Shown here piece after piece: positions 20,126 to 59,906 of a stretch of DNA of 64,000 bases. Every line of letters begins with the position of its first letter. The first letter of the stretch is position 1. The notes under the pieces were generated by a model. It was not told where the DNA came from and did no database searches. It saw nothing but the letters and a program-made list of their open reading frames with translations. Source of the DNA: an uncultured Alphaproteobacteria bacterium (lineage in GTDB: Bacteria > Pseudomonadota > Alphaproteobacteria > CAAHEQ01 > UBA3637); NCBI GenBank assembly GCA_934234055.1, contig CAKQGY010000001.1, positions 14,035-78,034 of the forward strand, in the 5' to 3' direction. A program made the translations under genes and the position numbers.

Positions 20126-20212
20126 CCTGTTTTTCTCCTGTGTTTTTTAGTATTTTTTTTGTTTTTTCCTCTCTCTCCCGCCATCTTCCTCTCTCTTGCT
20201 TTCCCACCCTTT

Positions 20213-20261
20213 GTCATTGCGAGGCCGTCAGGCCGTGGCAATCCACCCGGCACATAATTCC
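20213..20261 (+). repeat. REP/MITE-like repeat family 1, copy A (gtcattgcgag-hairpin-gtggcaatcc-acccggcacataattcc), preceded by a Py-rich tract and followed by C7
   Basis: Shares conserved flanks with copies at 24395, 27757, 36996, 43445, 44718, 46774 and 59741. The central hairpin ggccgtcaggcc is variable. Confidence 0.8.
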
Positions 20262-24394: not shown

Positions 24395-24455
24395 CCCCCT
24401 AATTCTTCTTGCCATTGCGAAGGACTGCGCAAGCGAGGACCTGCCTGTGGCCAGG
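24395..24455 (+). repeat. Degenerate copy B of repeat family 1 (ccccctaattcttcttgccattgcgaagg...tgtggccagg)
   Basis: The Py-tract plus a cattgcgaRg core are recognisable. The right flank has diverged. Confidence 0.5.
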
Positions 24456-24610
24456 TGGGGCGCGCAAAGCAATGAACCTTTGCCTTGAACCAGTCCGCTT
24501 CCGCGCACGCCGTTCAAGGCTTAGGTGGAATTGTTTTTTTGCCCGCCCTGTGTCAATCCATAATCAAAGAGTCAACCGTCATTTTACCATCATATAACAC
24601 GGGCAGGGCA

Positions 24611-24716
24611 GGCCGGCACACCTGCGCCGACCCTCACACCATACCACACGGGCCGGCACACCCGCGCCGCCCCTCACACCACACACAACGGGCCGGCACA
24701 CCCGCGCCGGCCCGTT
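24611..24716 (+). repeat. Tandem repeat family 2: 40-bp unit gccggcacaccYgcgccgMccctcacaccaYaccacacgg, 2.7 units
   Basis: Direct tandem units at 24611-24650 and 24651-24690, with a partial third unit ending in the palindrome cgggccggc-N8-gccggcccg. A related copy in the opposite orientation sits at 43317-43380. Confidence 0.8.
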
Positions 24717-26828: not shown

Positions 26829-27737
26829 ATGATTACCCAACAAGAATTTCTCACCCAAGTCCGCACACAGATTTTCCCATTGATTGATATTCGCGCCGAG
26901 TGGTGCTCCAAGTTGCGTCATCATACGATCATTTTGGGAACATTGGCACTGTATGTGTTTTTAATGTATTGTCTAAATGGTAATCCTGTTATCACTTTGC
27001 TCATTCTTTTAATTCCTTTTGCTGGTTTTTACGCTTTGGATCATTTTTACCGCAAGCAAAAGGCAGTTGTCCGTCCGCTTATTTTTCGGATTTTGGGTGC
27101 CGATACCCGCCCCGAGTATAAGATTACCGGACCTACCGTTGACCAACTCCGCCAAATTCATTTCCTGCCCAAATTAGACGCGCGCCGGATTGACGAAACA
27201 GCGGACGACAGTTTCGGCTTTCCGGGTGATTCGGTTCCCTTTTATGTCCAAGAGGTCCACTTTTCCGAAGGGGACGAAAACTCCGAGCATTTCCGTGGTG
27301 CTCTTGTTCGTTTTCCGTCCGGCACTTATCCCGACTTAAACCTGATGGTGATGAACAAAGCGTCCTTGCTTTATAAAGACCAAATCGCTCTTTCCTCGCG
27401 CAAGGCCCTTCAATCCGTTTTCGGATCGGATGAGTGGCAACCGCTCAATCTGGAAAGTGTCAACTTCACGAAAAAGTATTATTCGTTTACTAACGACCAA
27501 CTGACCGCGCGCCGTATTTTAACGCCGTTGTTTATAGATCGTATTCGCGAGTTGGAAGCGGTTTATAAAGCTCCGGTGAATATTTTATTTTTCCAAGGGT
27601 ATTTATGCCTGATGATTGTCACGAACCGCAATATGTTTGAGTTTTCCGGCTCTTGGAAAGATATGAAGACCTACGAGAAGTTTTACGACGAAATCGCCGC
27701 CCTTTACGACTTCCAACATTTCTTCAACCTTTCTTAA
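26829..27737 (+). CDS. Membrane protein, possibly DUF3137-like
   Basis: 302 aa with two TM helices near the N-terminus and then a soluble domain. The family call is tentative. Confidence 0.45.
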   Translation: MITQQEFLTQVRTQIFPLIDIRAEWCSKLRHHTIILGTLALYVFLMYCLNGNPVITLLILLIPFAGFYALDHFYRKQKAVVRPLIFRILGADTRPEYKITGPTVDQLRQIHFLPKLDARRIDETADDSFGFPGDSVPFYVQEVHFSEGDENSEHFRGALVRFPSGTYPDLNLMVMNKASLLYKDQIALSSRKALQSVFGSDEWQPLNLESVNFTKKYYSFTNDQLTARRILTPLFIDRIRELEAVYKAPVNILFFQGYLCLMIVTNRNMFEFSGSWKDMKTYEKFYDEIAALYDFQHFFNLS

Positions 27738-27756: not shown

Positions 27757-27807
27757 GTCATTGCGAGGCGACTTGTCGCCGTGGCAATCCATAAGGCACA
27801 TAATTCC
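27757..27807 (+). repeat. Repeat family 1 copy C (gtcattgcgag-gcgacttgtcgcc-gtggcaatcc-ataaggcacataattcc)
   Basis: Sits between convergent genes. The central hairpin gcgac-ttg-tcgcc is variable. Confidence 0.8.
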
Positions 27808-34214: not shown

Positions 34215-34914
34215 TACGCAATTCCAACGCACTTTATTACTTTTCGGGAGCGCGGGCCTCGCGCGCCTGCGTCAATCGCGTGTAGCCGTTGTCGGTTGCG
34301 GCGCGGTCGGCAGTTTCGCGATAGAGGCTCTTGCCCGCACCGGAGTCGGCCATATTTTTCTGGCAGACGGCGATACGGTTCAGCCCAGTAACATCAACCG
34401 TCAGTTATGCGCCCTGCATTCCACGATCGGTGAAAACAAAGCGCAAACCCTTGCCGCCCGCATTCACGACATTTGTCCCGACACCCGGGTTATTGCCTAT
34501 CCGGATTTTATCCGTCCCGAAACGTTGCCGGATTTACTGGCTTTTCGCCCTGATTTTGTGATAGACGCCATAGACATTCTTCCCGACAAAGCCGGCTTGA
34601 TTTGCGCGGTTCAGCAAGCCGGCATTCCACTTGTTTCGTCTATGGGGGCAGCCCTTAAAACAGATCCGCTGTCGGTGCGCCTGGCTCCGCTCAATCAGAC
34701 CTCCGTTTGTCCGTTGGCCGCCCGCCTGCGTCGTTTGTTGAAACGCCAAGGTGCCGACCTCACATTTCCGTGTGTTTATTCGGTTGAAAAGCCCGCCGCC
34801 GCTCGTGATTCCGGCCGTCAGATGGGCAGCCTTATCACGCTCACGGGCTTGTTCGGCCTGGTGCTTGCGAACACCGTTATTTTACAGTTGGTAAAGGAAC
34901 CTCTCAATGCCTGA
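34207..34914 (+). CDS. tcdA: ThiF/MoeB-family tRNA threonylcarbamoyladenosine dehydratase (TcdA/CsdL-like)
   Basis: Rossmann motif VAVVGCGAVGSFAIEALARTGVGHIFLAD.GD. It overlaps the tatD stop. The tracked N-terminus runs into tatD. Confidence 0.65.
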   Translation: MTDTQFQRTLLLFGSAGLARLRQSRVAVVGCGAVGSFAIEALARTGVGHIFLADGDTVQPSNINRQLCALHSTIGENKAQTLAARIHDICPDTRVIAYPDFIRPETLPDLLAFRPDFVIDAIDILPDKAGLICAVQQAGIPLVSSMGAALKTDPLSVRLAPLNQTSVCPLAARLRRLLKRQGADLTFPCVYSVEKPAAARDSGRQMGSLITLTGLFGLVLANTVILQLVKEPLNA

Positions 34915-37231
34915 TTTTTTTGAACTGACCGATCCCGTCGATTTTTCCGAGGCCGCCCCCACTTCTTCTCCCCAGGACTACCCGTTTATGCAGGCTCTGA
35001 ACCCCGAGCAGCGCCAAGCCGTCATGCAGACCGAGGGTCCCGTTTTGGTTTTATCCGGTGCCGGCACGGGCAAGACTCGCGTGCTCACCACCCGGATTGC
35101 GTATTTGCTGGCGACGGGCAGGGCGACTCCGTGGCAGATTTTAGCCGTCACTTTCACCAACAAGGCCAGCCGCGAGATGAAAGATCGCCTGGAACAGATG
35201 ATCGGCCCGTCGGCGCGTTCGGTATGGCTGGGCACATTTCACGCTATCGGGGTCAAGATTTTGTCGCGTTATGCGGCTCAGGCCGGCCTTGCCCCCAACT
35301 TTATCGTTCTCAACACCGACGACCAAGAACGCCTGTTAAAGCAGCTGATGGTTGCCGGTGGCGTGGACATCAAGCGTTTTACGCCCGCCACGATGCTGGA
35401 CATTATTCAGCGTTGGAAGGACCGCGGCCTGTCCCCCACGGCGATTACGCCGGCTCAGGACAGTGATTTTTGCGACGGCCGTGCGCGTGGCTTTTATCAG
35501 CTGTATCAGAATCGCCTGCGCGAGTTAAACGCCGTTGATTTCGGTGATTTGCTGCTGCTGCCGCTGGAATTGTTCAAGGCCCACCCCGACATTTTAGCGG
35601 TTTATCAGGCCAAGTTCCGCTATCTTCTGGTGGACGAGTATCAGGACACCAATGTTGCCCAGTATTTACTGCTGCGTTTATTGGCGCAAAAGTCGCGTAA
35701 TATCTGCTGTGTCGGCGATGATGATCAGTCTATTTATTCCTGGCGCGGAGCCGAGGTTGAAAACATTCTCAATTTTCAAAGCGTGTATCCCGACGCCGTT
35801 GTGATTCGACTGGAACGCAACTATCGCTCTACGGCGCATATTTTGGGCGCGGCCTCGGCACTGATTGCGAACAATGCCGGACGTCTTGGCAAGACTCTCA
35901 AAGTTGCCGACAACCGCGACGGTGCGGGCGATCGCGTGCACATCACGGGCTACTGGAACGGCACCCAAGAGGCCGCCGGCATTATATCGCATGTAGAGCA
36001 TGCTCAATCTCTCGGCACGCCGCTGTCCCATATGGCGATATTGGTGCGCACATCGGCTCAAACCCGTCCCTTTGAAGACGAGTTGATTCGGGCCGGTATT
36101 CCTTATAAGATTATCGGCGGGTTCAAGTTTTACGAGCGCGAAGAAATCCGCGATGCCGTGGCATATTTGCGCCTGGTCTTAAATCCCGGCGATGATCTGG
36201 CGTTTCAGCGCATCGTCAACAAGCCCCGCCGCGGTATCGGCGACAGCGCGCTGACGGCCATTTCCGAGGCTGCCCGCGACCATCGGATCAGCCTCTTTGA
36301 CGCGATTGCGTGGGCCACATTGCGCCCGTCTGTCCGGCGCACGCTGGACGGCTTTACAACACTGATCACCACCGCCCGCGGCAAACAGGATTTGCTGGAC
36401 CCGGCCGCCCTTGCCAAACAAGTGCTTGAAGACTCGGGCTACATCAATATGTGGCGTATGGACAAATCGCCCGAGGCCGAGGGCCGTTTAGAGAACTTGG
36501 ACGAATTGTATAATGTGTTGGGTGATTTCGAAACGATCAATGATTTTATTGAATATGCCGCCTTGCTCACCGACGCGGACGATAATGCGACCGACGATCA
36601 ACTGGTTGTAATGACACTTCACGCGTCCAAAGGGCTTGAATTTGACTATGTTTTCCTGGCCGGCTGGGAGGAGGGGCTTTTCCCGCACCAACGTGCGTTG
36701 GACGAGACCGGCCAGCAGGGTCTGGAAGAAGAACGTCGTTTGGCGTATGTAGGCCTGACCCGTGCGCGTCAAAAAGCGTTTATTTCGTTTGCCGCGAACC
36801 GCAAGATCTACGGCCAATGGGAGAATACGGTGGCCAGTCGTTTTATTGACGAACTTCCCCCGGGGGATATTCAGAACGATACCCAAGTCCGTATGGGCTC
36901 CACTTCCGGTGATTTTTCCGCTCCCTATCCCCGCGCCGCCTGTGCGTCCTCTTCTGATTCCTTTTCCCGCTCTTTTAATTCTTCTCCTCTCCCCCGTCAT
37001 TGCGAGGGACAGATCAATCTGTCCTGTGGCAATCCATTAAACCAAGAGTCCTTATACTCTTACCAAGGACGAGCCACCCCCCGCCGGAAATCTGCCCGTA
37101 TCGGTAAAAGGGTCTATCACGACACATTCGGTTTCGGAACAGTGATTCGCGAGGAGGGCGACCGCCTGGAAGTCCGTTTTGACGACTATGGCCTCAAAAA
37201 AGTCCTCTCTCGCTTCCTCTCCCCCGCTTAA
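34907..37231 (+). CDS. uvrD: UvrD/PcrA-family ATP-dependent DNA helicase, with a repeat element inserted in-frame in the C-terminal linker
   Basis: Carries the helicase motifs (GAGTGKTRVL Walker A, DEYQDTN, VGDDDQSIYSWRGA, ...) and a C-terminal Tudor-like domain (GKRVYHDTFGFGTVIREEGDRLEVRF). Residues encoded by 36945-37060 are repeat family 1 copy D. Confidence 0.85.
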   Translation: MPDFFELTDPVDFSEAAPTSSPQDYPFMQALNPEQRQAVMQTEGPVLVLSGAGTGKTRVLTTRIAYLLATGRATPWQILAVTFTNKASREMKDRLEQMIGPSARSVWLGTFHAIGVKILSRYAAQAGLAPNFIVLNTDDQERLLKQLMVAGGVDIKRFTPATMLDIIQRWKDRGLSPTAITPAQDSDFCDGRARGFYQLYQNRLRELNAVDFGDLLLLPLELFKAHPDILAVYQAKFRYLLVDEYQDTNVAQYLLLRLLAQKSRNICCVGDDDQSIYSWRGAEVENILNFQSVYPDAVVIRLERNYRSTAHILGAASALIANNAGRLGKTLKVADNRDGAGDRVHITGYWNGTQEAAGIISHVEHAQSLGTPLSHMAILVRTSAQTRPFEDELIRAGIPYKIIGGFKFYEREEIRDAVAYLRLVLNPGDDLAFQRIVNKPRRGIGDSALTAISEAARDHRISLFDAIAWATLRPSVRRTLDGFTTLITTARGKQDLLDPAALAKQVLEDSGYINMWRMDKSPEAEGRLENLDELYNVLGDFETINDFIEYAALLTDADDNATDDQLVVMTLHASKGLEFDYVFLAGWEEGLFPHQRALDETGQQGLEEERRLAYVGLTRARQKAFISFAANRKIYGQWENTVASRFIDELPPGDIQNDTQVRMGSTSGDFSAPYPRAACASSSDSFSRSFNSSPLPRHCEGQINLSCGNPLNQESLYSYQGRATPRRKSARIGKRVYHDTFGFGTVIREEGDRLEVRFDDYGLKKVLSRFLSPA
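36996..37035 (+). repeat. Repeat family 1 copy D, inside the uvrD ORF (gtcattgcgag-ggacagatcaatctgtcc-tgtggcaatcc)
   Basis: Preceded by the usual Py-tract (36945-36993, encoding a Ser-rich linker). The whole insert is read in-frame with no stop. Confidence 0.8.
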
Positions 37232-37242
37232 AAATTATTTTC

Positions 37243-37740
37243 TCAAATCATAGACTCAAACACAACCGTGCCAGCATTGTTGTCGTTGCAGTTTGTCTTA
37301 TGGGGTTTATCGCTATTTTCCGGCCGCACGCTCACATTCTGCCATTGATAGGCTTTCAACTGTTCACACGCGGCTTTCGGCACACTGTCCAAAGTAATCA
37401 CGAAATAATCTCCCGTCTCCGGCGTAACGGTCATTTTTCCCCACGGCGTATCGGCCTCAACGCCCTTGTCTTTTACCTGACACCCATAGGCATCACAGAC
37501 ATCATTATTGACAATGCGCAGCCCAAAATCATTAGTTGTCGGATAGGCCCGGCTCCACGAAAAGATATCCGAGATTCCCCGCGCTGTTTCTTCTACTTGC
37601 GAATAGACCTGCGACACGTTATAGGCCTGCATGCCAAAGTTCATTGCCGATATTCCCCCGACGGTCAGCACGCCGATCACGGCCAGCACCCCCAGCATTT
37701 CCACCATAGATCGTCCGGTTTCATTCGTATTCATCATCAT
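37243..37740 (-). CDS. Type IV pilin-like / pseudopilin protein (prepilin-type N-terminal cleavage/methylation domain)
   Basis: MMMNTNETG|RSMVEMLGVLAVIGVLTVGG has a short leader, a Gly and then a Glu at +5 followed by a hydrophobic helix. The N-terminal 35 aa are near-identical to the large adhesin at 44899..46539, and its downstream domain is distantly related to that protein too. Confidence 0.7.
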   Translation of the reverse strand: MMMNTNETGRSMVEMLGVLAVIGVLTVGGISAMNFGMQAYNVSQVYSQVEETARGISDIFSWSRAYPTTNDFGLRIVNNDVCDAYGCQVKDKGVEADTPWGKMTVTPETGDYFVITLDSVPKAACEQLKAYQWQNVSVRPENSDKPHKTNCNDNNAGTVVFESMI

Positions 37741-38512: not shown

Positions 38513-39664
38513 ATGATTATAAAAACAAGCACCGAACTGACGGATCTGTGCACGCGTTTGGCACAGCATCCCTTTATTACTTTGGATACCGAGTTTATCC
38601 GCGAACACACCTATTATCCCGAATTATGCCTGATTCAGGTTGCTTCTCCGGCCGAGGCCGCCTGTATAGATCCGCTGGCACCGGATTTGGATCTGACGCC
38701 GTTATTTGCACTGCTCCAAAACCCGAATGTGGTCAAGGTTTTTCACGCCGCCCGCCAAGATGTGGAAATTTTCTACCACCTGACCGGCCAAGTCCCGACG
38801 CCGCTGTTTGATACCCAAATTGCCGCGATGGTGTGCGGCTATGGCGAGAATATCGGTTATCAGCAGTTGGTGCACGATATATCCGGCGTCTCACTGGACA
38901 AGTCTATGCGTTTCACGGATTGGAGTCGTCGCCCCCTAAATGAAGAGCAGGTCGCCTATGCGCTTCACGATGTCACTTATCTGCGTGATGTATACACGGC
39001 ACTCAATGACCGGTTGCAACAATCCGGGCGTCAGTCTTGGTTGGCTCAGGAAATCGCGATTCAAAACGATCCCGCCACTTACGATACGAGCGAGGATGAA
39101 GTTTGGCATCGGATCAAGGTCCCGTTCAAGCGTCCCTTACAAACCTATGTTTTTGCCAAGTTATGCGCCTGGCGCGAGCGCACGGCCAAGCGTAAAAACC
39201 GCCCGCGCAAGTTTATTCTCAAAGACGACGCCTTGATTGAGTTGGCCCTGATGATGCCCGAACAACCGTCTGATATGGACACGGGGCGCAATATCCCCCG
39301 CGGTTTCGGTAAAAGTCCTTTCGGGCAAGAGGTTTTGGCCGTTATTTCGGCGGCGCGCACGGATCCGCCCGAGTGTTATCCCACTGCCTGGAAACAACCC
39401 AAACCCCTCACATCGGCTCAACACGCTTTTTCGGATATGTTGCAACTGTTGCTGGCCATTATTGCGACAAATTTGGGGGTTGCTCCGCGCATTATTGCCA
39501 CAACGGACGAGTTGCGCGAATTGGCTCGCGGTAATAATCAGGTGCCCTGTATGCAGGGGTGGCGCCGCGACATTTTCGGCGAGCAGGTTTTGCTTTTCAA
39601 GCAAGGCAAGCTCGGCCTGATTTATGACCCGGCGACACACCATCCCGAAATAAAACCGCTCTGA
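38513..39664 (+). CDS. rnd: Ribonuclease D
   Basis: DEDDy 3'-5' exonuclease domain (FITLDTEF...LIQV, ... YALHDVTYL) followed by an HRDC region. 383 aa. Confidence 0.8.
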   Translation: MIIKTSTELTDLCTRLAQHPFITLDTEFIREHTYYPELCLIQVASPAEAACIDPLAPDLDLTPLFALLQNPNVVKVFHAARQDVEIFYHLTGQVPTPLFDTQIAAMVCGYGENIGYQQLVHDISGVSLDKSMRFTDWSRRPLNEEQVAYALHDVTYLRDVYTALNDRLQQSGRQSWLAQEIAIQNDPATYDTSEDEVWHRIKVPFKRPLQTYVFAKLCAWRERTAKRKNRPRKFILKDDALIELALMMPEQPSDMDTGRNIPRGFGKSPFGQEVLAVISAARTDPPECYPTAWKQPKPLTSAQHAFSDMLQLLLAIIATNLGVAPRIIATTDELRELARGNNQVPCMQGWRRDIFGEQVLLFKQGKLGLIYDPATHHPEIKPL

Positions 39665-39707: not shown

Positions 39708-39817
39708 TGGGCTAATTTCCTCATACGGCTAAGTGTTTTAGTCTCCACGGAGATACATCAATCAGCGCGGGTGCGCCCATTGGTGCGCTTGGTATATAGG
39801 AGGTTTGAAAGGGTTAC

Positions 39818-41206
39818 ATGTTCACGGGATTGAGCGAAAAATTATCGGCAGTATTTGACAAACTCACGCGGCGTGGGATTTTAACCGAATCCGCCGTTGA
39901 CGAAACGATGCGCGAAATCAAGGTTGCTTTGATTGAAGCCGATGTGGCGCTTCCTGTGATCAAAGATTTTATCGCCACGGTGCGGTCTCGTGCGATCGGC
40001 GAGCAGGTTGTCAAATCTGTTTCCCCCGCTCAGATGGTGGTAAAAATCGTGCATGATGCGTTGGTTGAGATGTTGGGTAATTCAACACCGTTGAATCTGA
40101 CACCTCGGCAACAGAACATCATTTTAATGGTCGGGTTGCAGGGATCCGGCAAAACGACCTCGTCGGCCAAGTTGGCCCGACGCTTGCAAAAGCAAGGAAA
40201 ATCCGTCCTATTGGCCAGTTTGGATACTTACCGGCCGGCGGCTCAGGAACAACTCTCGGAACTCGGATCGGCCAACGACCTCACGGTCTTGCCGATTGTG
40301 CCGGCGGAACAACCGCTGGACATTGCCAAACGGGCATTGGCGGCGGCGAAACAATCGCTTGCCGATGTGCTGATTTTGGATACGGCGGGCCGGCTGCATA
40401 TTGATGATGATATGATGGCTCAGGTTGCCGCAATACGCGATCTCACAAAACCGTGCGAGGTTTTGTTGGTGGTTGATGCTCTCATGGGCCAGGACGCGGT
40501 GAATGTCGCCCGGGCTTTTCGGGATAAAATCGGGATTACCGGAACGATTTTAACGCGTGTTGACGGGGACGCACGGGGTGGTGCGGCGCTGTCTATGCGG
40601 GCGATTACCGGTGTGCCGGTGCAATTTTTGGGCGTTGGCGAACGGGCCGATGCGCTTGAAGCCTTTGACGCCAAACGGATTGCCGACCGGATTTTGGGTA
40701 TGGGTGATGTGGTCGGATTGGTTGAAACCGCGATTGAAAAAGTCAATCACGCCGAGGCCGAAAAGACAGCCGCCCGTATGATGTCGGGTCGTTTTGACCT
40801 GAACGATCTTCTCTCTCAAATGCGCCAGATCAATCAAATGGGCGACATTCGTGGGATTATGAAGATGATTCCCGGGTTGGGGCGTTTTTCGGCGCAGATT
40901 GATGCGGCCGGCGTCAACAACAACCTGATCAAGCGTCAAGAGGCCATTATTCTGTCTATGACACCGCGTGAGCGTCGGAATCCCGATTTGCTCAAAGCCT
41001 CCCGCAAACAGCGGATTGCAAACGGTGCCGGCGTTTCTGTCAGCGATGTGAATCGTTTACTCAAACAGTATGAACAGATGGCCGATATGATGCGGAAATT
41101 CAAGAAAATGGGCCCGCTGGGTATGATGTCCCTGATGAAAAAGATGGGCGGCGCATTTGGCGGAAATAACCCGTTTATGAATGGCGGGGGCTTGCCTCCG
41201 TTTTAA
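39818..41206 (+). CDS. ffh: Signal recognition particle protein Ffh
   Basis: N, G and M domains. The G domain has GLQGSGKTT and DTAGR motifs, and the Met-rich M domain ends in ...KKMGPLGMMSLMKKMGG. Confidence 0.95.
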   Translation: MFTGLSEKLSAVFDKLTRRGILTESAVDETMREIKVALIEADVALPVIKDFIATVRSRAIGEQVVKSVSPAQMVVKIVHDALVEMLGNSTPLNLTPRQQNIILMVGLQGSGKTTSSAKLARRLQKQGKSVLLASLDTYRPAAQEQLSELGSANDLTVLPIVPAEQPLDIAKRALAAAKQSLADVLILDTAGRLHIDDDMMAQVAAIRDLTKPCEVLLVVDALMGQDAVNVARAFRDKIGITGTILTRVDGDARGGAALSMRAITGVPVQFLGVGERADALEAFDAKRIADRILGMGDVVGLVETAIEKVNHAEAEKTAARMMSGRFDLNDLLSQMRQINQMGDIRGIMKMIPGLGRFSAQIDAAGVNNNLIKRQEAIILSMTPRERRNPDLLKASRKQRIANGAGVSVSDVNRLLKQYEQMADMMRKFKKMGPLGMMSLMKKMGGAFGGNNPFMNGGGLPPF

Positions 41207-43281: not shown

Positions 43282-43313
43282 ACACCGACGGGAGAACCCG
43301 CCGGTGTTTTTTT
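43282..43313 (+). terminator. Rho-independent terminator after rplS
   Basis: GC hairpin acaccgacggg-agaa-cccgccggtgt followed by T7. Confidence 0.75.
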
Positions 43314-43316
43314 ATG

Positions 43317-43380
43317 AGGGTGTGGTCGGCGCGGAGTGTGGTATGGTGTGAGGGTTGGTGCGGGATGTGCCGGCCGATCC
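43317..43380 (-). repeat. Repeat family 2 copy (about 1.5 units, minus orientation)
   Basis: The reverse complement reads ccggcacatcccgcaccaaccctcacaccataccacactccgcgccgaccacaccctc, matching the units at 24611-24716. Confidence 0.7.
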
Positions 43381-43382
43381 TC

Positions 43383-43398
43383 TTTTTTTTTGGGGGGG
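43383..43398 (+). repeat. Homopolymeric tract T9G7
   Basis: tttttttttggggggg lies directly between the family-2 copy and family-1 copy E. Confidence 0.8.
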
Positions 43399-43444
43399 AA
43401 GGAGAGGAATGGCAGATTTGGGGTATATGGTTTCTTTGTTGAAT

Positions 43445-43481
43445 GGATTGCCGCGCGTCCGGAATGGACGCTCGCAATGAC
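43445..43481 (+). repeat. Repeat family 1 copy E (ggattgccgc-gcgtccggaatggacgc-tcgcaatgac), left direct repeat of the islet
   Basis: It matches copy F (46774-46810) at 33 of 37 positions, including the otherwise variable hairpin, and lies in the same orientation. Confidence 0.8.
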
Positions 43482-43582
43482 AGGGGATAGGGGATAACGG
43501 CGGAGTGGGGAAAGGTATTAAATGGAGTGGGTAAAAAAGAGAGACCTAAAAAGAAGAAGACGAAAGCGGGTGAAAAAAACTG

Positions 43583-43610
43583 TTTACAAAACGGAAAATT
43601 ATGCTATAAT
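43583..43610 (+). promoter_or_regulatory. Sigma-70 promoter TTTACA-N16-TATAAT for the small-protein pair
   Basis: Near-consensus hexamers. A GGAGG SD lies 8 nt before the ATG at 43658. Confidence 0.5.
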
Positions 43611-43657
43611 ATAACTATGGAGCCAATGGAGGCTCGATTATAACCGGAGGAAAAACG

Positions 43658-44044
43658 ATGGATTTGGTAAAACAATACTTTAAAGATGAACGCAAAGAAT
43701 TAAAAGATATGTCGCCGGAAGATAAGGCTGAATTGGCCGAAGAATTGCGCGCAACCACGACGGAAGTGAAAGCAATTGAACAGGCTGCCCCCTTTATGGC
43801 GGATAAAAATGAAAGCGACGGTTTTCGCATGGCGGTGGGGTTGGCAATGCATAACCCGAAAATCGCCAAAGCCATGAAAGCAATGAAACTGAAATTGTCA
43901 TCTAAACAAATTCCGGAACCTTTTGATGTGGAAGAAGAAGGTATCGGTCCGTGGATTCAGGCTGTCGTGAAATATGTGGAAACAGAACAAGCCTCGCGCA
44001 CTGCTGCAACCAAGAAATTGGCGGCCTCGCGGCGGGGGCGCTAG
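43658..44044 (+). CDS. Hypothetical helical protein, paralog 1 (128 aa, C-terminal ...KKLAASRRGR)
   Basis: Strong promoter and SD. Shares an FRxAVGxxxxNPKxAKxxKxxxLKLSSKxxPxP core and a C-terminal A-SRRGR motif with the next ORF. Confidence 0.55.
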   Translation: MDLVKQYFKDERKELKDMSPEDKAELAEELRATTTEVKAIEQAAPFMADKNESDGFRMAVGLAMHNPKIAKAMKAMKLKLSSKQIPEPFDVEEEGIGPWIQAVVKYVETEQASRTAATKKLAASRRGR

Positions 44045-44068
44045 GATATCCGAAAGGAGGAAAACCCG

Positions 44069-44596
44069 ATGAATTTGGACGAATTGGCCTATCCCGAGAA
44101 TATAGAAACCTATCGCACGACGGTGCCCGATAATGAAGAGCGCGTGTCGTCGGTGGACGAGATTGCTCTGGAAAAAGATATTGAAGCAGTGAAAAAAAGT
44201 GCACGGCTGCGGCAGGCGGATTTGGACGGGACAAAGTTGTCAAAGGCCGGCGCGGATAATATGCGGCAGACTTTGCCACAACTGGCGGCGCCGTATATTG
44301 AAGATCCGAAAAAGGAAACGATTCGCTTTCGAACCGCGGTCGGAATGCTGATCCGGAATAACCCGAAAATGGCGAAAATCCTGAAAGAAACGGGATTGAA
44401 ACTGTCGTCAAAGCTGGTGCCGAGCCCGTATGAAGCGAACTATGCACGATCGGAAATTGAGCATATCGGTATGTGGTGCGGCGCTGTGCGGGAGTTCTTG
44501 GAACGGCAGGAGGCTGCACGGCAGGCGAAAACACCGGCCAAAGCCGAAGAGGCTGCGCGGCTGAAACGCTTGGCACAGAGCCGGCGGGGACGCTAG
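44069..44596 (+). CDS. Hypothetical helical protein, paralog 2 (175 aa, C-terminal ...KRLAQSRRGR)
   Basis: Tandem paralog of 43658..44044 with a GGAGG SD. I recognise no family. Confidence 0.55.
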   Translation: MNLDELAYPENIETYRTTVPDNEERVSSVDEIALEKDIEAVKKSARLRQADLDGTKLSKAGADNMRQTLPQLAAPYIEDPKKETIRFRTAVGMLIRNNPKMAKILKETGLKLSSKLVPSPYEANYARSEIEHIGMWCGAVREFLERQEAARQAKTPAKAEEAARLKRLAQSRRGR

Positions 44597-44717
44597 GCCG
44601 GAGTGCCAGGGGAAGGCTGTCTGGGCTGTCGGGACGCCGAGGTATTCGGGCACTGGTGTGCGACGGTAAGGCTTGGCTGTATGGTGGCACGGGTCGGTAG
44701 GGTACCGGCGATGACAA

Positions 44718-44840
44718 GAAGCATTATCTGATTATGGATTGCCACAGGGCGGACTTTTCCAAGTCCGCCCTTCACAATGATATTGCATTCGTGTTTGATG
44801 GATTCTTCGCGGGGACAAGCCCCGCTCAGAATGACGAAAG
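44718..44840 (+). repeat. Repeat family 1 copy G, a two-module form (...attatggattgccac-hairpin-tcacaatga + tattgcattcgtgtttgatggattcttcg-cggggacaagccccg-ctcagaatgac)
   Basis: Module 2 is shared with copies F and H. It is intergenic between the paralog pair and the adhesin gene. Confidence 0.75.
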
Positions 44841-44898
44841 GTGAGACGGGCCTTTTCAGACCGTTCTGCGGTAATCCGGCAAATGCATAATTTATATA

Positions 44899-46539
44899 TT
44901 ACTTATGACATAAGAAAGGAGAGCCAATCGGACTTAAATCAATTTCTATTTCAGAGGCCACATTGTGCGCTTTCCCATCTTTCATTACAATTTGATATTT
45001 CTTTCCGGCGGTAAAAGAATAATCCTGTGGCCAGAACATATCTTTCCCAGATAGTGTGGCCGACCCTCTATTACCATAGGTATGCCAGGCCAAAGTGACA
45101 TTATTAAAAGACTCGTCCGACAAATAGATAAGATATCCCTCTTGAGTACTGGTGCAACTCTTTTTACTGGAATGAGTGCTGCCCATTGGAGACGTTGGTG
45201 TTGTTATACTGGTATAAGCTACAAAAGTTCGATTACATTTATTGCCCCATACAGAAGTATATTTAAGACCATCTTTTAAGCCGAAAAATTGACAAGGTGT
45301 TTTACAAACATTCTTAGTTGTATCACATTTAAACTTGTTATCTGCTCGTCCGGCACAATCCGTATCATTCACGCACTCCACGCAGGCTGTATTATCAGCG
45401 TTTGGTACGCCCGTCGGACAGTTGCATTCGCAGGTATCGGCATTTTGTGTCATACCGGCAGCCGCGCACGCCGGGCATTTGCAGGTATTGTTTGCGACAT
45501 CACAGACGGTCTTGGGCTCGGTGCAGGTCAAGGGCTCGTAAGTTGTATAGGCCGGACATGCTTCCGTCGCCGCGTGCTCCGTGGTCGTATAGCAGGTGTT
45601 CTGCGGCACCGACCCCGACTCCGGACAAGCACAAGTATTATCTGCCATATTGCATATTTTGCCGCCGGTGCAGTCTGTATCGGCCAGGCATTCCACACAC
45701 GCGTTGTCATCGGCGTTTGGCACCCCCGTCGGGCAAGTGCACGCACAGGTGTTCGGATTCTGCACCTTGTCCGGGTTCGTGCACCCCGTGGTGCAGACGC
45801 AGCTCAAATCGTCGTCGCACCGGTGCAGTCCGTCATTGGTGCAGTCCGCAATTGTGTTCTGGTGAGGCCCATACCTGTCAATTGAAGCCTGATCAAAATA
45901 GCACTGCCGCGTATTCGCCGTTGTGCAGCAAGTTAAATTGTTGGCGGCTGTTTTCTTACATTCTTTATTAGATAGGTATTGGCCTTCTTCAAACGCCAAA
46001 GTGTCCGTGTCCGTTACGCGGCAGCAGGTTTTGCCCCAACACGGATCATACGCCTCCGCGTCAGTGCGCTCGTTCAAGTCCCCCGCGAACACAAAGGTCA
46101 TCTTACTGTTCCCCTCGGGGCAGGGAATAGCCCGTTCATTCACAAAAATCCCCGCCGGCCAAGTCCAGTTCCGATCCAAGATATCCTGACACACCGCCTG
46201 AGGCACCTCTTTCACATCAATAGAGAACAAGTTTTTCTCGTTATTCAAGCCACCATCAAACCATTCGGTCTCATATTCCAGGATTGTGCTTGGGAACTCG
46301 GACAAGTTGATTCCCTCCATACCTTGCAGGTATTGCCCGCTACCGACGGTGGCGCGTTGTTTAACGCTTTCTATAATCTCGTTGGCGCGATACCGTGTCA
46401 TCGCAAAGTTATACCCCGCAACACCCCCGATGCTCAGCACTCCCATAATCGCCAACACCCCCAGCATCTCTACCATACTGCGACCAGATTCGGAATTGTC
46501 CTTTGCACCCCACGCCCCGGAGCGCCGGCTGAAGTTCAT
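44899..46539 (-). CDS. Large pilin-like Cys-rich adhesin candidate: prepilin-type N-terminus, tandem Cys-rich repeats and a C-terminal globular domain (546 aa from ATG 46539)
   Basis: The N-terminus ...SESG|RSMVEMLGVLAIMGVLSIGG is near-identical to the pilin-like ORF at 37243. Two Cys-rich modules are present (CxCPTGVPNADxxACVECxxDTDCxG). The tracked ORF reaches the TTG at 46653 through a C13 run encoding PPPP. An SD-preceded ATG at 46634 is currently out of frame. Confidence 0.65.
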   Translation of the reverse strand: MNFSRRSGAWGAKDNSESGRSMVEMLGVLAIMGVLSIGGVAGYNFAMTRYRANEIIESVKQRATVGSGQYLQGMEGINLSEFPSTILEYETEWFDGGLNNEKNLFSIDVKEVPQAVCQDILDRNWTWPAGIFVNERAIPCPEGNSKMTFVFAGDLNERTDAEAYDPCWGKTCCRVTDTDTLAFEEGQYLSNKECKKTAANNLTCCTTANTRQCYFDQASIDRYGPHQNTIADCTNDGLHRCDDDLSCVCTTGCTNPDKVQNPNTCACTCPTGVPNADDNACVECLADTDCTGGKICNMADNTCACPESGSVPQNTCYTTTEHAATEACPAYTTYEPLTCTEPKTVCDVANNTCKCPACAAAGMTQNADTCECNCPTGVPNADNTACVECVNDTDCAGRADNKFKCDTTKNVCKTPCQFFGLKDGLKYTSVWGNKCNRTFVAYTSITTPTSPMGSTHSSKKSCTSTQEGYLIYLSDESFNNVTLAWHTYGNRGSATLSGKDMFWPQDYSFTAGKKYQIVMKDGKAHNVASEIEIDLSPIGSPFLCHK

Positions 46540-46560
46540 ACGAAAATACTTTAATAACGC

Positions 46561-46566
46561 ATTATA
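46561..46566 (-). promoter_or_regulatory. Candidate -10 hexamer TATAAT upstream of ATG 46539
   Basis: A perfect TATAAT lies 22 nt upstream of the MNFSRR start. The -35 is poor (ATAACT-like), and the poly-C tract lies just upstream. Confidence 0.35.
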
Positions 46567-46599
46567 ACCACTTGAAAAACAAGAGTTATTCACACATAT

Positions 46600-46612
46600 G
46601 GGGGGGGGGGGG
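46600..46612 (+). repeat. Homopolymeric G13 (C13 on the coding strand) in the 5' region of the pilin-like adhesin gene
   Basis: Thirteen consecutive G. It separates an SD-preceded ATG (46634, frame +1) from the main ORF. Confidence 0.9.
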
Positions 46613-46706
46613 TATTGCCGGATAAAATATACATTTTGTGTCTCCTTTCTCAATCTGGAAAAATGTAATATATCTTTTTATAGCAGGAATTTTTGCCCCT
46701 GTCAAT

Positions 46707-46737
46707 AAAAAAAAGTCCGCATGACGCGGACAATTTT
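46707..46737 (-). terminator. Rho-independent terminator for the obg-rsfS transcript (hairpin gtccgc-atga-cgcggac with T8 on the minus strand)
   Basis: A8 precedes and aatttt follows on the plus strand, which gives a strong T8 on the minus strand. Confidence 0.65.
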
Positions 46738-46759
46738 GGCGATCCCGACAGGATTCGAA
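46737..46759 (-). other. tRNA 3'-end fragment (T-loop TTCGAAT, T-stem 3' half, acceptor 3' half, discriminator and CCA), with no 5' half
   Basis: The minus strand reads ttcgaat-cctgt-cgggatc-g-cca, which parses exactly as the 3' 23 nt of a tRNA. No complementary acceptor 5' strand lies within 100 nt, so it is not a gene. Confidence 0.55.
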
Positions 46760-46773
46760 CTTGCGTGTTTTGC

Positions 46774-46845
46774 GGATTGCCACGCGTCCAAAATGGACAC
46801 TCGCAATGACAAGCAGAATTATGTGCCTAATGGATTCTTCGGGAA
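46774..46845 (+). repeat. Repeat family 1 copy F (ggattgccac-gcgtccaaaatggacac-tcgcaatgac plus module 2 gaattatgtgcctaatggattcttcggg), right direct repeat of the islet
   Basis: Near-identical to copy E. It is followed by a Pu-rich tract that includes G6. Confidence 0.8.
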
Positions 46846-46880
46846 CACGGTGCGTGCCTCTTAGAATGAAAAAAACGGGG

Positions 46881-47315
46881 TTAGATTTTTTTGCGGGGAG
46901 GGGGGAGAGAAAGGCAGCGGCTGGGGCGCCAGAGAGATTCCAGGTCATAGCGGGTGCGAGCCTCGGCCGTCAGTAAATGCACGATAATGTTCCCCAGATC
47001 CACAATCACCCAGCTGCCGTCTCCGTCGCCGGCATTCGTCAGCGGAATAATATCGTGCGTGCGTAGGGTTTGCTCCAAATGGTAGCCCAGCGCCATTGTG
47101 TGGCGTGGGGAAGTGCCCGTTGCGATCACCACATAATCGGCCAGCGCGGACAGGCGGCGAATATCACGGGCTTGAATCTGCTCGGCCTTGCCGGTGTCCA
47201 GCTTTTTAATAATTAGGGTCAGGGTTTTGAGCGCGGCACGCTCGGCCGGGGTCGGTGTTGTCGGACGTTGCGGTCGGCGGGGGGAAGTGCGGGGTTTTCG
47301 GGGAGTAATGGGCAT
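46881..47315 (-). CDS. rsfS: Ribosome silencing factor RsfS (Iojap-like) with a Pro/Arg-rich N-terminal extension
   Basis: C-terminal core DYVVIATGTSPRHTMALGYHL...WVIVDLGNIIVHLL. The first roughly 35 aa (PITPRKPRTSPRRPQRPTTPTP) form a low-complexity extension. Confidence 0.75.
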   Translation of the reverse strand: MPITPRKPRTSPRRPQRPTTPTPAERAALKTLTLIIKKLDTGKAEQIQARDIRRLSALADYVVIATGTSPRHTMALGYHLEQTLRTHDIIPLTNAGDGDGSWVIVDLGNIIVHLLTAEARTRYDLESLWRPSRCLSLPPPRKKI

Positions 47316-59720: not shown

Positions 59721-59740
59721 ATAAGTTGCATTTGTGTCTG

Positions 59741-59812
59741 GTGGATTGCCGCGGGACAGACCTGTCTGTCCCGCGCAATGACAGAAGCATTCGTGTTTAA
59801 TGGATTCTTCGG
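59741..59812 (+). repeat. Repeat family 1 copy H (ggattgccgc-gggacagacctgtctgtcccgc-gcaatgac + module 2 agcattcgtgtttaatggattcttcgg), followed by G9 at 59852-59860
   Basis: Same modular structure as copies F and G. The G9 tract lies 45 nt upstream of the adhE -35. Confidence 0.8.
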
Positions 59813-59906
59813 TCGCTCCCAATTCAACCTAAGCCTGGAACGGCGTGTGCAGGGGGGGGGCGAAAAAATGGGAGTGAAAAAAGTCAAAAAAGGATGAAGA
59901 AAATGC

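Follow-up and report, generated by a model that had tools for sequence, protein, structure and literature searches.

A CGTC-tagged, Ssn-related hairpin repeat with a constant base and a variable apex in an uncultured gut alphaproteobacterium

Two described groups of hairpin repeats lie closest to the dispersed repeat studied here, which occurs at eight intergenic sites in a stretch of chromosome from an uncultured alphaproteobacterium (assembly GCA_934234055.1, contig CAKQGY010000001.1, positions 14,035 to 78,034; this whole stretch of 64,000 nucleotides is called the window). The first group, the CGTC-tagged repetitive extragenic palindromes (REPs), is recognized by a terminal CGTC (or TGTC/CCTC), a stem whose first pairs are A-T and T-A, and a CCA tail that stays unpaired; these REPs occur mostly in Alphaproteobacteria, have continuous 8-9-bp stems with 4-5-nt loops and are mostly arranged as head-to-head dimers (Di Nocera, De Gregorio & Rocco 2013, BMC Genomics 14:522; PMC3733652). 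Their family CGTC-1 includes the dRS3 repeats of Neisseria, RPE-6 of Rickettsia and repeats of Micavibrio, and no transposase was found in association with CGTC-tagged REPs (PMC3733652). The second group arose from the extension of dRS3 to the 28-nt NTS, CGTCATTCCCGCGMAVGCGGGAATCYRG, which is the target of SsnA, a 94-aa single-domain GIY-YIG protein (cd10448) that binds NTS solely as single-stranded DNA, on one strand, and cuts it a few nucleotides upstream (Chenal et al. 2025, Nat Commun 16:2388; PMC11893778). In Neisseria meningitidis, cleavage depends critically on the three nucleotides that precede the palindrome, and binding on the C that directly follows it; repeats typically bracket the Ssn genes, Ssn-related motifs (SRMs) are found in many phyla, and in Neisseria the Ssn system restricts transforming DNA, with the repeats concentrated around genes for surface proteins (PMC11893778).

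The repeat of the window is of this known kind, in a new host. We consider its membership of the CGTC-REP/SRM kind to be very probable, and the fuller reading, in which the hairpins are recognized by an Ssn nuclease and form recombination-prone points at which strains vary, to be probable; that an Ssn protein acts in this particular organism has, in our estimate, slightly better than an even chance. Below, we describe the structure of the repeat, its occurrence in other genomes and its turnover among closely related strains, and weigh these observations against other explanations.

A constant base and a free apex

On the GTCAT strand (opposite to the one used in an earlier, sequence-only reading of the window), each module has the frame (C/T)GTC-ATTGC-GA(G)-apical hairpin-(C)GYG-GCAAT-CCA(T). 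Folded as single-stranded DNA, this yields a 5-bp closing helix (ATTGC/GCAAT or, in a second form called module 2, ATTCT/AGAAT), a small, conserved, asymmetric internal loop in which GA stands opposite GYG, and an apical stem of 4-10 bp. Every module of the window has the AT...AT stem start and the CCA tail by which CGTC-tagged REPs are recognized, and 9 of the 11 keep the GTC in front of the palindrome as well as the C directly behind it.

The closing flanks co-vary as a helix. Instances were collected with the pattern TGGAT-NNN...TC-NNN-ATGAC[GA], which is blind to the pairing of the closing triplets, and these triplets proved fully complementary in 264 of 284 instances. Eight pair types were present, those other than TGC/GCA being CGC/GCG (21 instances), TAC/GTA, ACT/AGT and TCT/AGA (4 each) and GGC/GCC, CCT/AGG and CAC/GTG (1 each). 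Among the 81 distinct flank sets, the A-U and U-A pairs at the stem start were invariant, 93.6% of cells were paired and all three variable pairs had double-sided changes, with 32 doubly changed cells against 5.7 +/- 2.2 in shuffles (none of 500 shuffles reached the observed number); pairing collapsed when the partners were slid. The pairing of ATTGC with GCAAT proposed in the sequence-only reading is thus borne out, and module 2, with ATTCT/AGAAT, is therefore a compensated subtype, one that also occurs in a Verrucomicrobia metagenome-assembled genome (MAG; L040, where the prefix L marks the loci outside the window with which it was compared).

Occurrence across bacterial phyla

In a scan of one genome per species, at least 120 genome loci, spread over about a dozen phyla, contained the flank pair ATGGATTGCC-N12-36-TCGCAATGAC, whereas by our own arithmetic chance would give about 27 matches in the 596 Gb. 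Hosts among the matches listed include Alpha-, Beta- and Gammaproteobacteria, Helicobacter, Desulfovibrionaceae, Myxococcaceae, Bacteroidota (Chitinophagales/Cyclobacteriaceae), Opitutaceae/Verrucomicrobia, Treponema, Fibrobacter, Melainabacteria, Patescibacteria and Firmicutes (Clostridia, Heliobacteriaceae); cultured isolates are represented by Helicobacter canis, H. rodentium, Oceanisphaera pacifica, Inquilinus limosus, Tsuneonella flava and Hankyongella ginsenosidimutans. Micavibrio loci bear exactly the flanks of the window. The foreign copies are not chance matches, because positions that the pattern leaves free are conserved (interior C3 in 98%, interior G4 in 89% and the last three interior bases, CTC, in 91-99%). 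The base that follows ...ATGAC is also constrained across phyla, being G in 75% and A in 19% of copies (G/A 94%).

An independent test of membership gave the same picture. A covariance model built from 85 copies from other phyla, with zero window sequences, recovered eight modules of the window at E values from 3.6e-13 to 1.3e-5, the next match lying at E 0.044; it missed the decayed G2 and the long form at site B, both described below. In other genomes, the same subtype also forms head-to-head inverted pairs and is present in both orientations. The motif GGATTGCC...TCGCAATGAC was also found at 120 or more loci in predicted viral contigs of IMG/VR (L161-L280), with module arrays of up to 11 copies (L186, L196). 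A metagenome scan with the lineage-specific leader GAATTATGTGCCNNNTGGATT gave nine chance matches, none of them related to the window, and a text search of the literature with the flank sequences returned unrelated primers only.

Relation to CGTC-tagged REPs and Ssn-related motifs

The sequence-only reading had considered conserved flanks around a free hairpin to be unusual for REPs, which is not so; the family fits the frame of the CGTC-tagged REPs (PMC3733652) together with the NTS/SRM class (PMC11893778). With the former it has in common the CGTC/TGTC tag, the A-T/T-A stem start, the CCA tail, an intergenic location with some copies in gene ends, a predominance in Alphaproteobacteria, subfamilies with compensated stems and the lack of an associated transposase. 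With the latter it has in common the oriented hairpin CGTCAT-palindrome-ATC, in which the critical GTC and the C after the palindrome are kept, the occurrence in many phyla (for SRMs, at hundreds of copies per genome; PMC11893778), a proximity to variable surface-protein genes, here putative pilin-like genes, and the layout repeat-ssn-repeat, which we found for the subtype of the window in three other, independent lineages.

In the first of these, a Micavibrio MAG (L060), the Ssn gene has module pairs on both sides. In the second, a gut organism of 36% GC (L144-151), one module overlaps the ssn start codon and an array with a period of 101 nt follows the stop codon, and in the third, an alphaproteobacterium of 55% GC (L152-157), modules abut both the start and the stop of ssn. 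The Ssn proteins of all three carry PF01541, and the flanking modules belong to the ATTGC/GCAAT subtype. More distant Ssn genes (about 50% identical), from IMG/VR contigs, are instead flanked by NTS-type GGATTCCCGC...GCGGGAATGAC or GGGT-type hairpins, so that nuclease clade and hairpin subtype appear to go together. The upstream module abuts or overlaps the ssn start at L152 2968-3003 and L144 2983-3015 (...GCAATCC/ATG), so that the conserved AT behind the ATCC tail could be left over from the ssn start codon; across phyla, the base after this AT is G in 35% of copies.

We propose that a module acts as a two-tier single-stranded DNA hairpin, in which a constant base (the tag, a 5-bp closing helix starting A-T/T-A, the internal loop and a C-rich tail) carries an apical stem-loop. 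The base would most likely be the recognition site of an Ssn protein (cd10448, single-domain GIY-YIG) encoded elsewhere in the genome, whereas the apex would only have to pair and could therefore differ from copy to copy. The Ssn protein would nick a few nucleotides 5' of the tag, a position that in this genome corresponds to a pyrimidine-rich flank, and the modules would behave as fragile, recombination-prone points where strains differ.

Repeat sites in the window

The sequence-only reading had claimed at least eight copies of a dispersed, modular, REP-like family with freely varying apical hairpins, and in these respects it was correct: all eight sites were confirmed at or very near the positions given, and they contain 11 modules. 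Exact pairs of the decamers ATGGATTGCC and TCGCAATGAC lie at 27757-27792(-), 36996-37037(-) and 43443-43481(+), and pairs with one mismatch at 20213(-), 46774(+) and 59741(+). Module 2 (ATGGATTCTTCG ... CTCAGAATGAC), which had been read as following module 1 at sites F, G and H, is complete at 44798-44835 and is represented by its left flank at 46830 and 59800. A loose structural scan (GGAT-xyz...x'y'z'-ATGA) gave 9 matches in the window against 2.3 +/- 1.6 in Markov shuffles. No extra copies were found in blastn-short searches with all leaders, and the sequence walked to the left and right of the window added none. The modules of the window stand singly or head-to-tail, with a lineage-specific leader of 17-20 nt between them, and all copies are intergenic except D, which overlaps the end of an open reading frame (ORF).

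Four sites lie on the minus strand. Site A (20213..20261), between the divergent yceD and ABC-permease genes, consists of a type-a leader (GGAATTATGTGCCGGGT) and a module 1 of the form GGATTGCCAC-GGCC TGAC GGCC-TCGCAATGAC (covariance-model match at 20209-20249, E 1.2e-10). Site B (24411..24600) is composed of a module 2 remnant (24578-24600), a spacer and a long-form module 1 at 24411-24561, with the left flank ATGGATTGAC at 24552-24561 and the right flank TCGCAATGGC at 24411-24420. What had been taken for a degenerate copy at 24395-24455 is the 3' part of this long form, which has the same flanks as the other modules and an insert of about 130 nt in the apical slot; the insert comprises an imperfect hairpin of about 95 nt and a second small hairpin, and folds as single-stranded DNA at -37.3 kcal/mol (z -3.6). 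Site C (27757..27807), immediately downstream of the asmA stop codon, has a type-a leader and a module 1 with the apex GGCGAC AA GTCGCC, and is the best match of the covariance model (E 3.6e-13). Site D (36996..37050; E 1.5e-10), a module 1 with the apex GGACAGAT TG ATCTGTCC, is located downstream of a gene for a pilin-like protein of 165 aa and within the 3' tail of the uvrD ORF. This ORF (34907-37231, +) runs through the copy, so that the repeat allele sets the length of the C-terminal tail; the protein has 774, 799 or 821 aa across strains.

The other four sites lie on the plus strand. Site E (43429..43481; E 1.6e-11) is a module 1 with the apex GCGTCC GGAAT GGACGC, about 130 nt past the rplS terminator. 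At site F, a degenerate module read from the sequence at about 44641..44716 (TATGGTGGCAC...GGCGATGAC; unit 0), which is kept in strains L126 and L130, precedes the two units recognized by the covariance model. Unit 1 (F1; 44718..44781, E 1.3e-5) has a type-b leader and a module 1 with a decayed right flank (TTCACAATGAT) and a 10-bp apical stem, GGGCGGACTT TTCC AAGTCCGCCC, the unit folding at -15.1 kcal/mol (z -6.9); unit 2 (F2; 44782..44835, E 7.8e-8) has a type-b leader and the module 2 GGATTCTTCG-CGGGGAC AAG CCCCG-CTCAGAATGAC, with the closing helix ATTCT/AGAAT. Site G (46774..46870) begins with a module 1, G1 (apex GCGTCC AAAAT GGACAC; E 2.5e-7), followed by a type-a leader and a decayed module 2, G2 (...CTTAGAATGAA), which the model did not detect. 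It lies between two minus-strand genes and is thus antisense to both. A sequence near this site resembles the 3' end of a tRNA; we considered it as a tRNA remnant and discarded it, as ARAGORN finds no tRNA there. Site H (59726..59851), past the serS terminator and before adhE, has a type-b leader and a module 1, H1, with the apex GGGACAGAC CT GTCTGTCCC (-16.5 kcal/mol, z -6.2; E 1e-6), and then a second unit, H2, in which a type-b leader and the left flank of module 2 are fused to a truncated long-form insert (59820-59847) that ends at a G9 run.

The extents given in the sequence-only reading accordingly change, with G2 reaching 46870, H2 being a truncated long form to about 59851 and the degenerate unit preceding F, although the copies themselves stand. 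Its description of a unique stem-loop in each copy holds in that the apices vary, but not in full, as E and G1, D and H1, and F1 and B have common apical arms. The tag is CGTC at C, D and F2, TGTC at A, E, G1 and H1, and decayed to TATC at F1 and TTTC at G2. The tract that had been noticed beside the modules is purine-rich and lies 3' of ...ATGAC: at six of the eight sites, purines make up >=70% of 60 nt, which places these tracts in or above the 98th percentile for the window. The flanks upstream of the modules have no purine enrichment.

Mosaic alleles among closely related strains

We aligned the window with fourteen contigs of 94-100% identity to it; the orthologous intergenic regions differ between strains both in the presence of copies and in mosaic alleles. 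The possibility, raised at the outset, that all copies belong to accessory DNA of one origin did not hold: the copies sit in core intergenic DNA. The homology between strains is interrupted at copies D, E, F and G, and the changes are DNA-level events at or within the hairpin. At site A, strains with identical YceD have one of two leaders (GGAATTATGTGCC... or ATTGCATTCTTGTTC...) and one of two apices (GGCC-TGAC-GGCC or GCCCC-ACAAG-GGGGC), in three of the four possible combinations. The 98%-identical strain L304 (GCA_977942485.1) lacks the DUF3137 gene present at 26829-27737 (+) in the window, and an array of module 1 and module 2 fills its interval between the HAD-hydrolase gene and asmA; the module 1 of this array at site C is a different, canonical short one (GGATTGCTTCACTGCGTTCGCAATGAC), only one base off the copy beside the Ssn gene of L144.

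The insert of the long form occurs at more than one site: besides site B of the window, L130/L133 have it at site E and L125/L127 at site D. At site D, homology with the L125 group breaks at 37003/37074, where this group has module 2 fused to the long form; L127 has a complete module 2 plus long-form array, from which the L125 allele derives by a 77-nt deletion. At site E, the window has a short hairpin, L130/L133 have the same left arm with the long insert, and L131 and the L125 group are without the element. At site F, L126 is identical to the window up to ...ATGGATTGCCAC and unrelated after it, the rest of F and the gene for a 584-aa protein having been deleted with a breakpoint exactly after GGATTGCCAC, and the TTCC loop of unit 1 is replaced by its reverse complement, GGAA, in L130/L131. 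A comparison of site H with L126, L130 and L133 as empty sites was rejected, as those loci carry thyX-valS and not serS-adhE.

The elements thus form a mosaic. This appears comparable to the Neisseria intergenic mosaic elements (NIMEs), which are reportedly RS units flanked by dRS3: both are arrays in which a constant short hairpin repeat separates variable units, and both are mosaic from strain to strain and enriched in the neighbourhood of variable surface genes. They differ, however, in host phylum and in unit sequence, and here it is the leader and the hairpin apex that vary, whereas NIMEs vary in the 50-150-bp RS units between repeats. The hairpins themselves may cause the rearrangements, or may mark sites that tolerate them.

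Could the modules instead be sites of the integron attC type, at which a recombinase acts on folded single strands and exchanges neighbouring variable genes as cassettes? Conserved ends that enclose a variable centre, a function as a folded single strand and an orientation bias related to replication (here, uniform orientation relative to GC skew, described below) would be in keeping with this, as would the homology breaks at D, E, F and G and the mosaic junctions at the flank boundaries. Moreover, E and G1, which have a common apical hairpin, bracket in direct orientation a 3.3-kb segment with genes for proteins of 128 aa, 175 aa and 584 aa (the last pilin-like) that is missing or different elsewhere. 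Yet the flanks of the window, GGATTGC / GCAATGAC, contain no R/L core boxes (RYYYAAC/GTTRRRY) and no extrahelical-base signature, there is no cassette array, and no transposase, integrase or recombinase gene was found in the window or its extensions. Tandem modules also occur with no cassette between them, L131 has an extra gene inserted without a module, and the alleles are explicable by ordinary homologous exchange with short-homology conversion and hairpin-stimulated deletion. To our knowledge, GIY-YIG nucleases do not rejoin DNA. Of the likeness to recombination sites that the sequence-only reading had remarked on, the breaks and junctions at conserved flanks stand, and no recombinase was found; we consider attC-like sites quite improbable.

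Several genes beside the repeats are themselves variable. The region at 43300-46900, downstream of rplS, differs from strain to strain, the 128-aa and 175-aa paralogues (44% identical, no Pfam match) and the pilin-like gene being present, replaced or absent (L125-L133); the extra gene of L131 encodes 310 aa, and the variable genes reuse a promoter-like sequence, CTGTTTACAAAACGGAAAATTATGCTAyAAT. The 165-aa (37243-37740, -) and 584-aa (44899-46653, -) proteins have in common the pilin-like N-terminal sequence GRSMVEMLGVLAxxGVLxxGG (Glu at +5) and 30% identity over a stretch of 128 residues; neither has a formal match in Pfam or NCBIfam, and the pilin label comes from our reading of the N-terminus. 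Their genes adjoin copy D and copies F and G, respectively. The 584-aa protein is Cys- and Thr-rich, with a weak Cys-rich-repeat match, and has 545-589 aa or is absent in other strains. Upstream of its gene, a G13 run at 46600-46612 (C13 on the gene strand) is a candidate tract for phase variation by slipped-strand mispairing: judged by eye, L130 also has G13 and L131 has G10, and one 100%-identical contig breaks off within the run. Strain-variable runs beside the repeats are T9G7 at 43383-43398 and G9 at 59852-59860. A second hairpin repeat family, a tandem of the 40-nt unit GGCCGGCACACCCGCGCCGACCCTCACACCACACACAACG at 24611-24713 (2.6 copies, 90% match), adjoins the long form at site B and has one unit fewer in L304; a degenerate relative lies at about 43320-43390, between the rplS terminator and copy E.

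Orientation and genomic context

The window is core chromosome, with genes that include rnpA, yidC, mnmE, mnmG, uvrD, rnd, ffh, rpsP, rimM, trmD, rplS, obg, rnj, serS and adhE, and its Ffh has 81-82% identity with proteins named 'MAG: Alphaproteobacteria bacterium'. The curve of cumulative GC skew forms a V over the whole window, with a minimum at 39,432, and gene orientation switches near 38.5 kb; the usually origin-proximal rnpA-yidC-mnmE-mnmG genes are at 12-19 kb. It is possible that the replication origin lies at the skew minimum. All eight modules detected by the covariance model are on the minus strand to its left and on the plus strand to its right, the antisense site G included, and in other genomes, 60 loci with a single orientation divide 38 to 22 in a weak trend relative to GC skew. 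If the minimum is the origin, the GGAT...ATGAC strand would always be on the lagging-strand template and the GTCAT strand, presumptively the one cleavable by Ssn, on the leading-strand template, an arrangement that fits either avoidance of self-cleavage or a spread dependent on single-stranded DNA. The orientation of the modules may reflect replication.

A replichore-following orientation is also what results when elements such as IS608 and ISDra2 transpose as single-stranded DNA into the lagging-strand template, and would be expected if the repeats were classical REPs or miniature inverted-repeat transposable elements (MITEs) moved by a tyrosine HUH transposase (RAYT or the TnpA of IS200-IS605) or by another transposase. 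The GTAG REPs and REPINs that accompany RAYT are, like the repeats of the window, short intergenic palindromes read as single-stranded DNA, with family tags and strain-dependent presence. They differ in the GTAG tag and in the HUH tyrosine transposase partner, neither of which was found here: the tag is CGTC/TGTC, and transposases are lacking both in the window with its extensions and in association with CGTC-tagged REPs in general (PMC3733652). In comparisons of filled and altered sites, we saw no target-site duplication and no terminal inverted repeats beyond the hairpin itself, so that the MITE-like character suggested in the sequence-only reading is not upheld. Movement by a transposase is, in our judgement, very improbable.

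The orientation has another correlate, in that the GGAT...ATGAC strand is the sense strand of the adjacent gene at seven of the eight sites. Together with the location of several copies just past terminators (rplS, serS) and the suggestion that many REPs are transcribed (PMC3733652), this would suit an element that works as RNA, either as hairpins of untranslated regions that stabilize or process mRNA or as a small structured RNA family, and the closing helix co-varies as such an element would require, although co-variation cannot separate an RNA from a DNA helix. However, none of the 4227 Rfam covariance models with which the window was scanned matched the repeats, not even at E <= 10. On neither strand is the hairpin followed by a T-run (GAC and purines follow, or CCAT on the other strand), and the true rplS and serS terminators lie upstream, so that the hairpins do not qualify as intrinsic terminators. 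Site G is antisense to both neighbours, inverted pairs and both orientations occur in other genomes, the loop inversion and the flank-precise deletion are DNA events, and the characterized relative binds single-stranded DNA and not RNA (PMC11893778). We therefore regard an RNA-level role as unlikely, and the resemblance to structured RNAs voiced in the sequence-only reading as unsupported. The sole above-threshold Rfam match in the window is the ffh sRNA RF01793 at 39743-39793 (+) (39.7 bits, E 5e-4), directly upstream of the ffh gene (39818-41206).

Strength of the proposed reading

Several observations weigh against the proposal that the repeats are CGTC-REP/SRM-type hairpins acted on by an Ssn nuclease. 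No ssn or other GIY-YIG ORF was found in the window, in the flanking 9 kb on its right (L158) and 8 kb on its left (L311), or where the 14 strain loci are non-syntenic, about 82 kb of this genome having been covered by phmmer with YhbQ-like seeds, by a profile hidden Markov model from 120 Ssn homologues (E <= 10) and, for the main ORFs, by Pfam; the same searches recovered the Ssn gene of L060 only, and as the profile derives from one Ssn clade, a distant member could escape it. The action of Ssn in this organism accordingly stays conditional in our proposal. An ssn gene adjoins a module in only 1 of 120 random motif-bearing genome loci and in 0 of 120 viral-contig loci (an Ssn-like ORF occurs in two of the latter, adjacent to a module in neither), which adds no support, although such counts are uninformative because copies greatly outnumber genes. 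The published SRM pattern, HGTCWYN(0-2)YYVSBRHN(0-5)WNVSBRGN(0-2)RNCYNB, has no match in the window (0.21 expected), and its 13 matches in other loci overlap none of 340 two-tier modules. SsnA of N. meningitidis depends on the sequence of the palindrome and not on its shape alone (PMC11893778), so that the tolerance of arbitrary apical hairpins is an assumption of our model.

The architecture and the orientation add to these points. A 5-bp helix, an internal loop and a free apex of 4-10 bp or about 95 nt take the place of the continuous stem of the CGTC-tagged REPs, and the modules stand singly or head-to-tail and not as head-to-head dimers; they differ likewise from NTS, which has a fully paired 9-bp stem and a 3-nt loop. 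A DnaA-box scan near 39.4 kb found no cluster that would mark an origin, and the argument from orientation is weak because there are only eight sites and gene direction agrees with module direction at seven of them (G being the exception).

On the other side stand the co-varying base, the recovery of the modules by a model built entirely from foreign copies, the Ssn genes bracketed by the same subtype in three lineages and the changes at hairpins between strains, which in our view make the proposal of CGTC-REP/SRM-type hairpins with an Ssn partner the probable one. A dprA gene (DNA-processing protein A, natural transformation) is located at L311 15945-17072, about 4-5 kb left of the window start, adjoining topA and recJ; it would gain relevance should the repeats, like their counterparts in Neisseria, act on incoming single-stranded DNA.

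Implications

Four features are noteworthy for repeats of this kind, although we do not present them as novel: the two-tier build, the arrangement in head-to-tail arrays that include a lineage-specific leader, the long form of the apex and the mosaic turnover among near-identical strains. A further-reaching interpretation, which is speculative and which we regard as rather doubtful, would be that the two-tier ATTGC-GA/GYG hairpin is a distinct and very large class of Ssn substrates, in practice still unrecognized, in which the enzyme reads nothing but the base and the apex serves as an open slot for 11 to about 130 nt, so that the modules serve as single-stranded-DNA break or recombination points that shuffle leaders, apices and pilin-like genes, in a system of NIME/pilS-like variation or of transformation control outside Neisseria.

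For annotation, the assignment means that a repeat that looks odd in raw sequence can be placed in a family with a characterized partner enzyme. Counts of SRMs obtained with the published pattern are likely to be underestimates, because that pattern misses a pan-bacterial subtype that flanks Ssn genes. Ssn nucleases are under development as site-specific tools for single-stranded DNA and, if the enzyme reads the base alone, the subtype described here would be a recognition module with a designable apex. The strain comparisons also constitute a small natural data set on how hairpins change in vivo, through loop inversion, apex swaps and flank-precise deletion, and they hint that in this alphaproteobacterium, as in Neisseria, such repeats may lie beside variable surface-protein genes.

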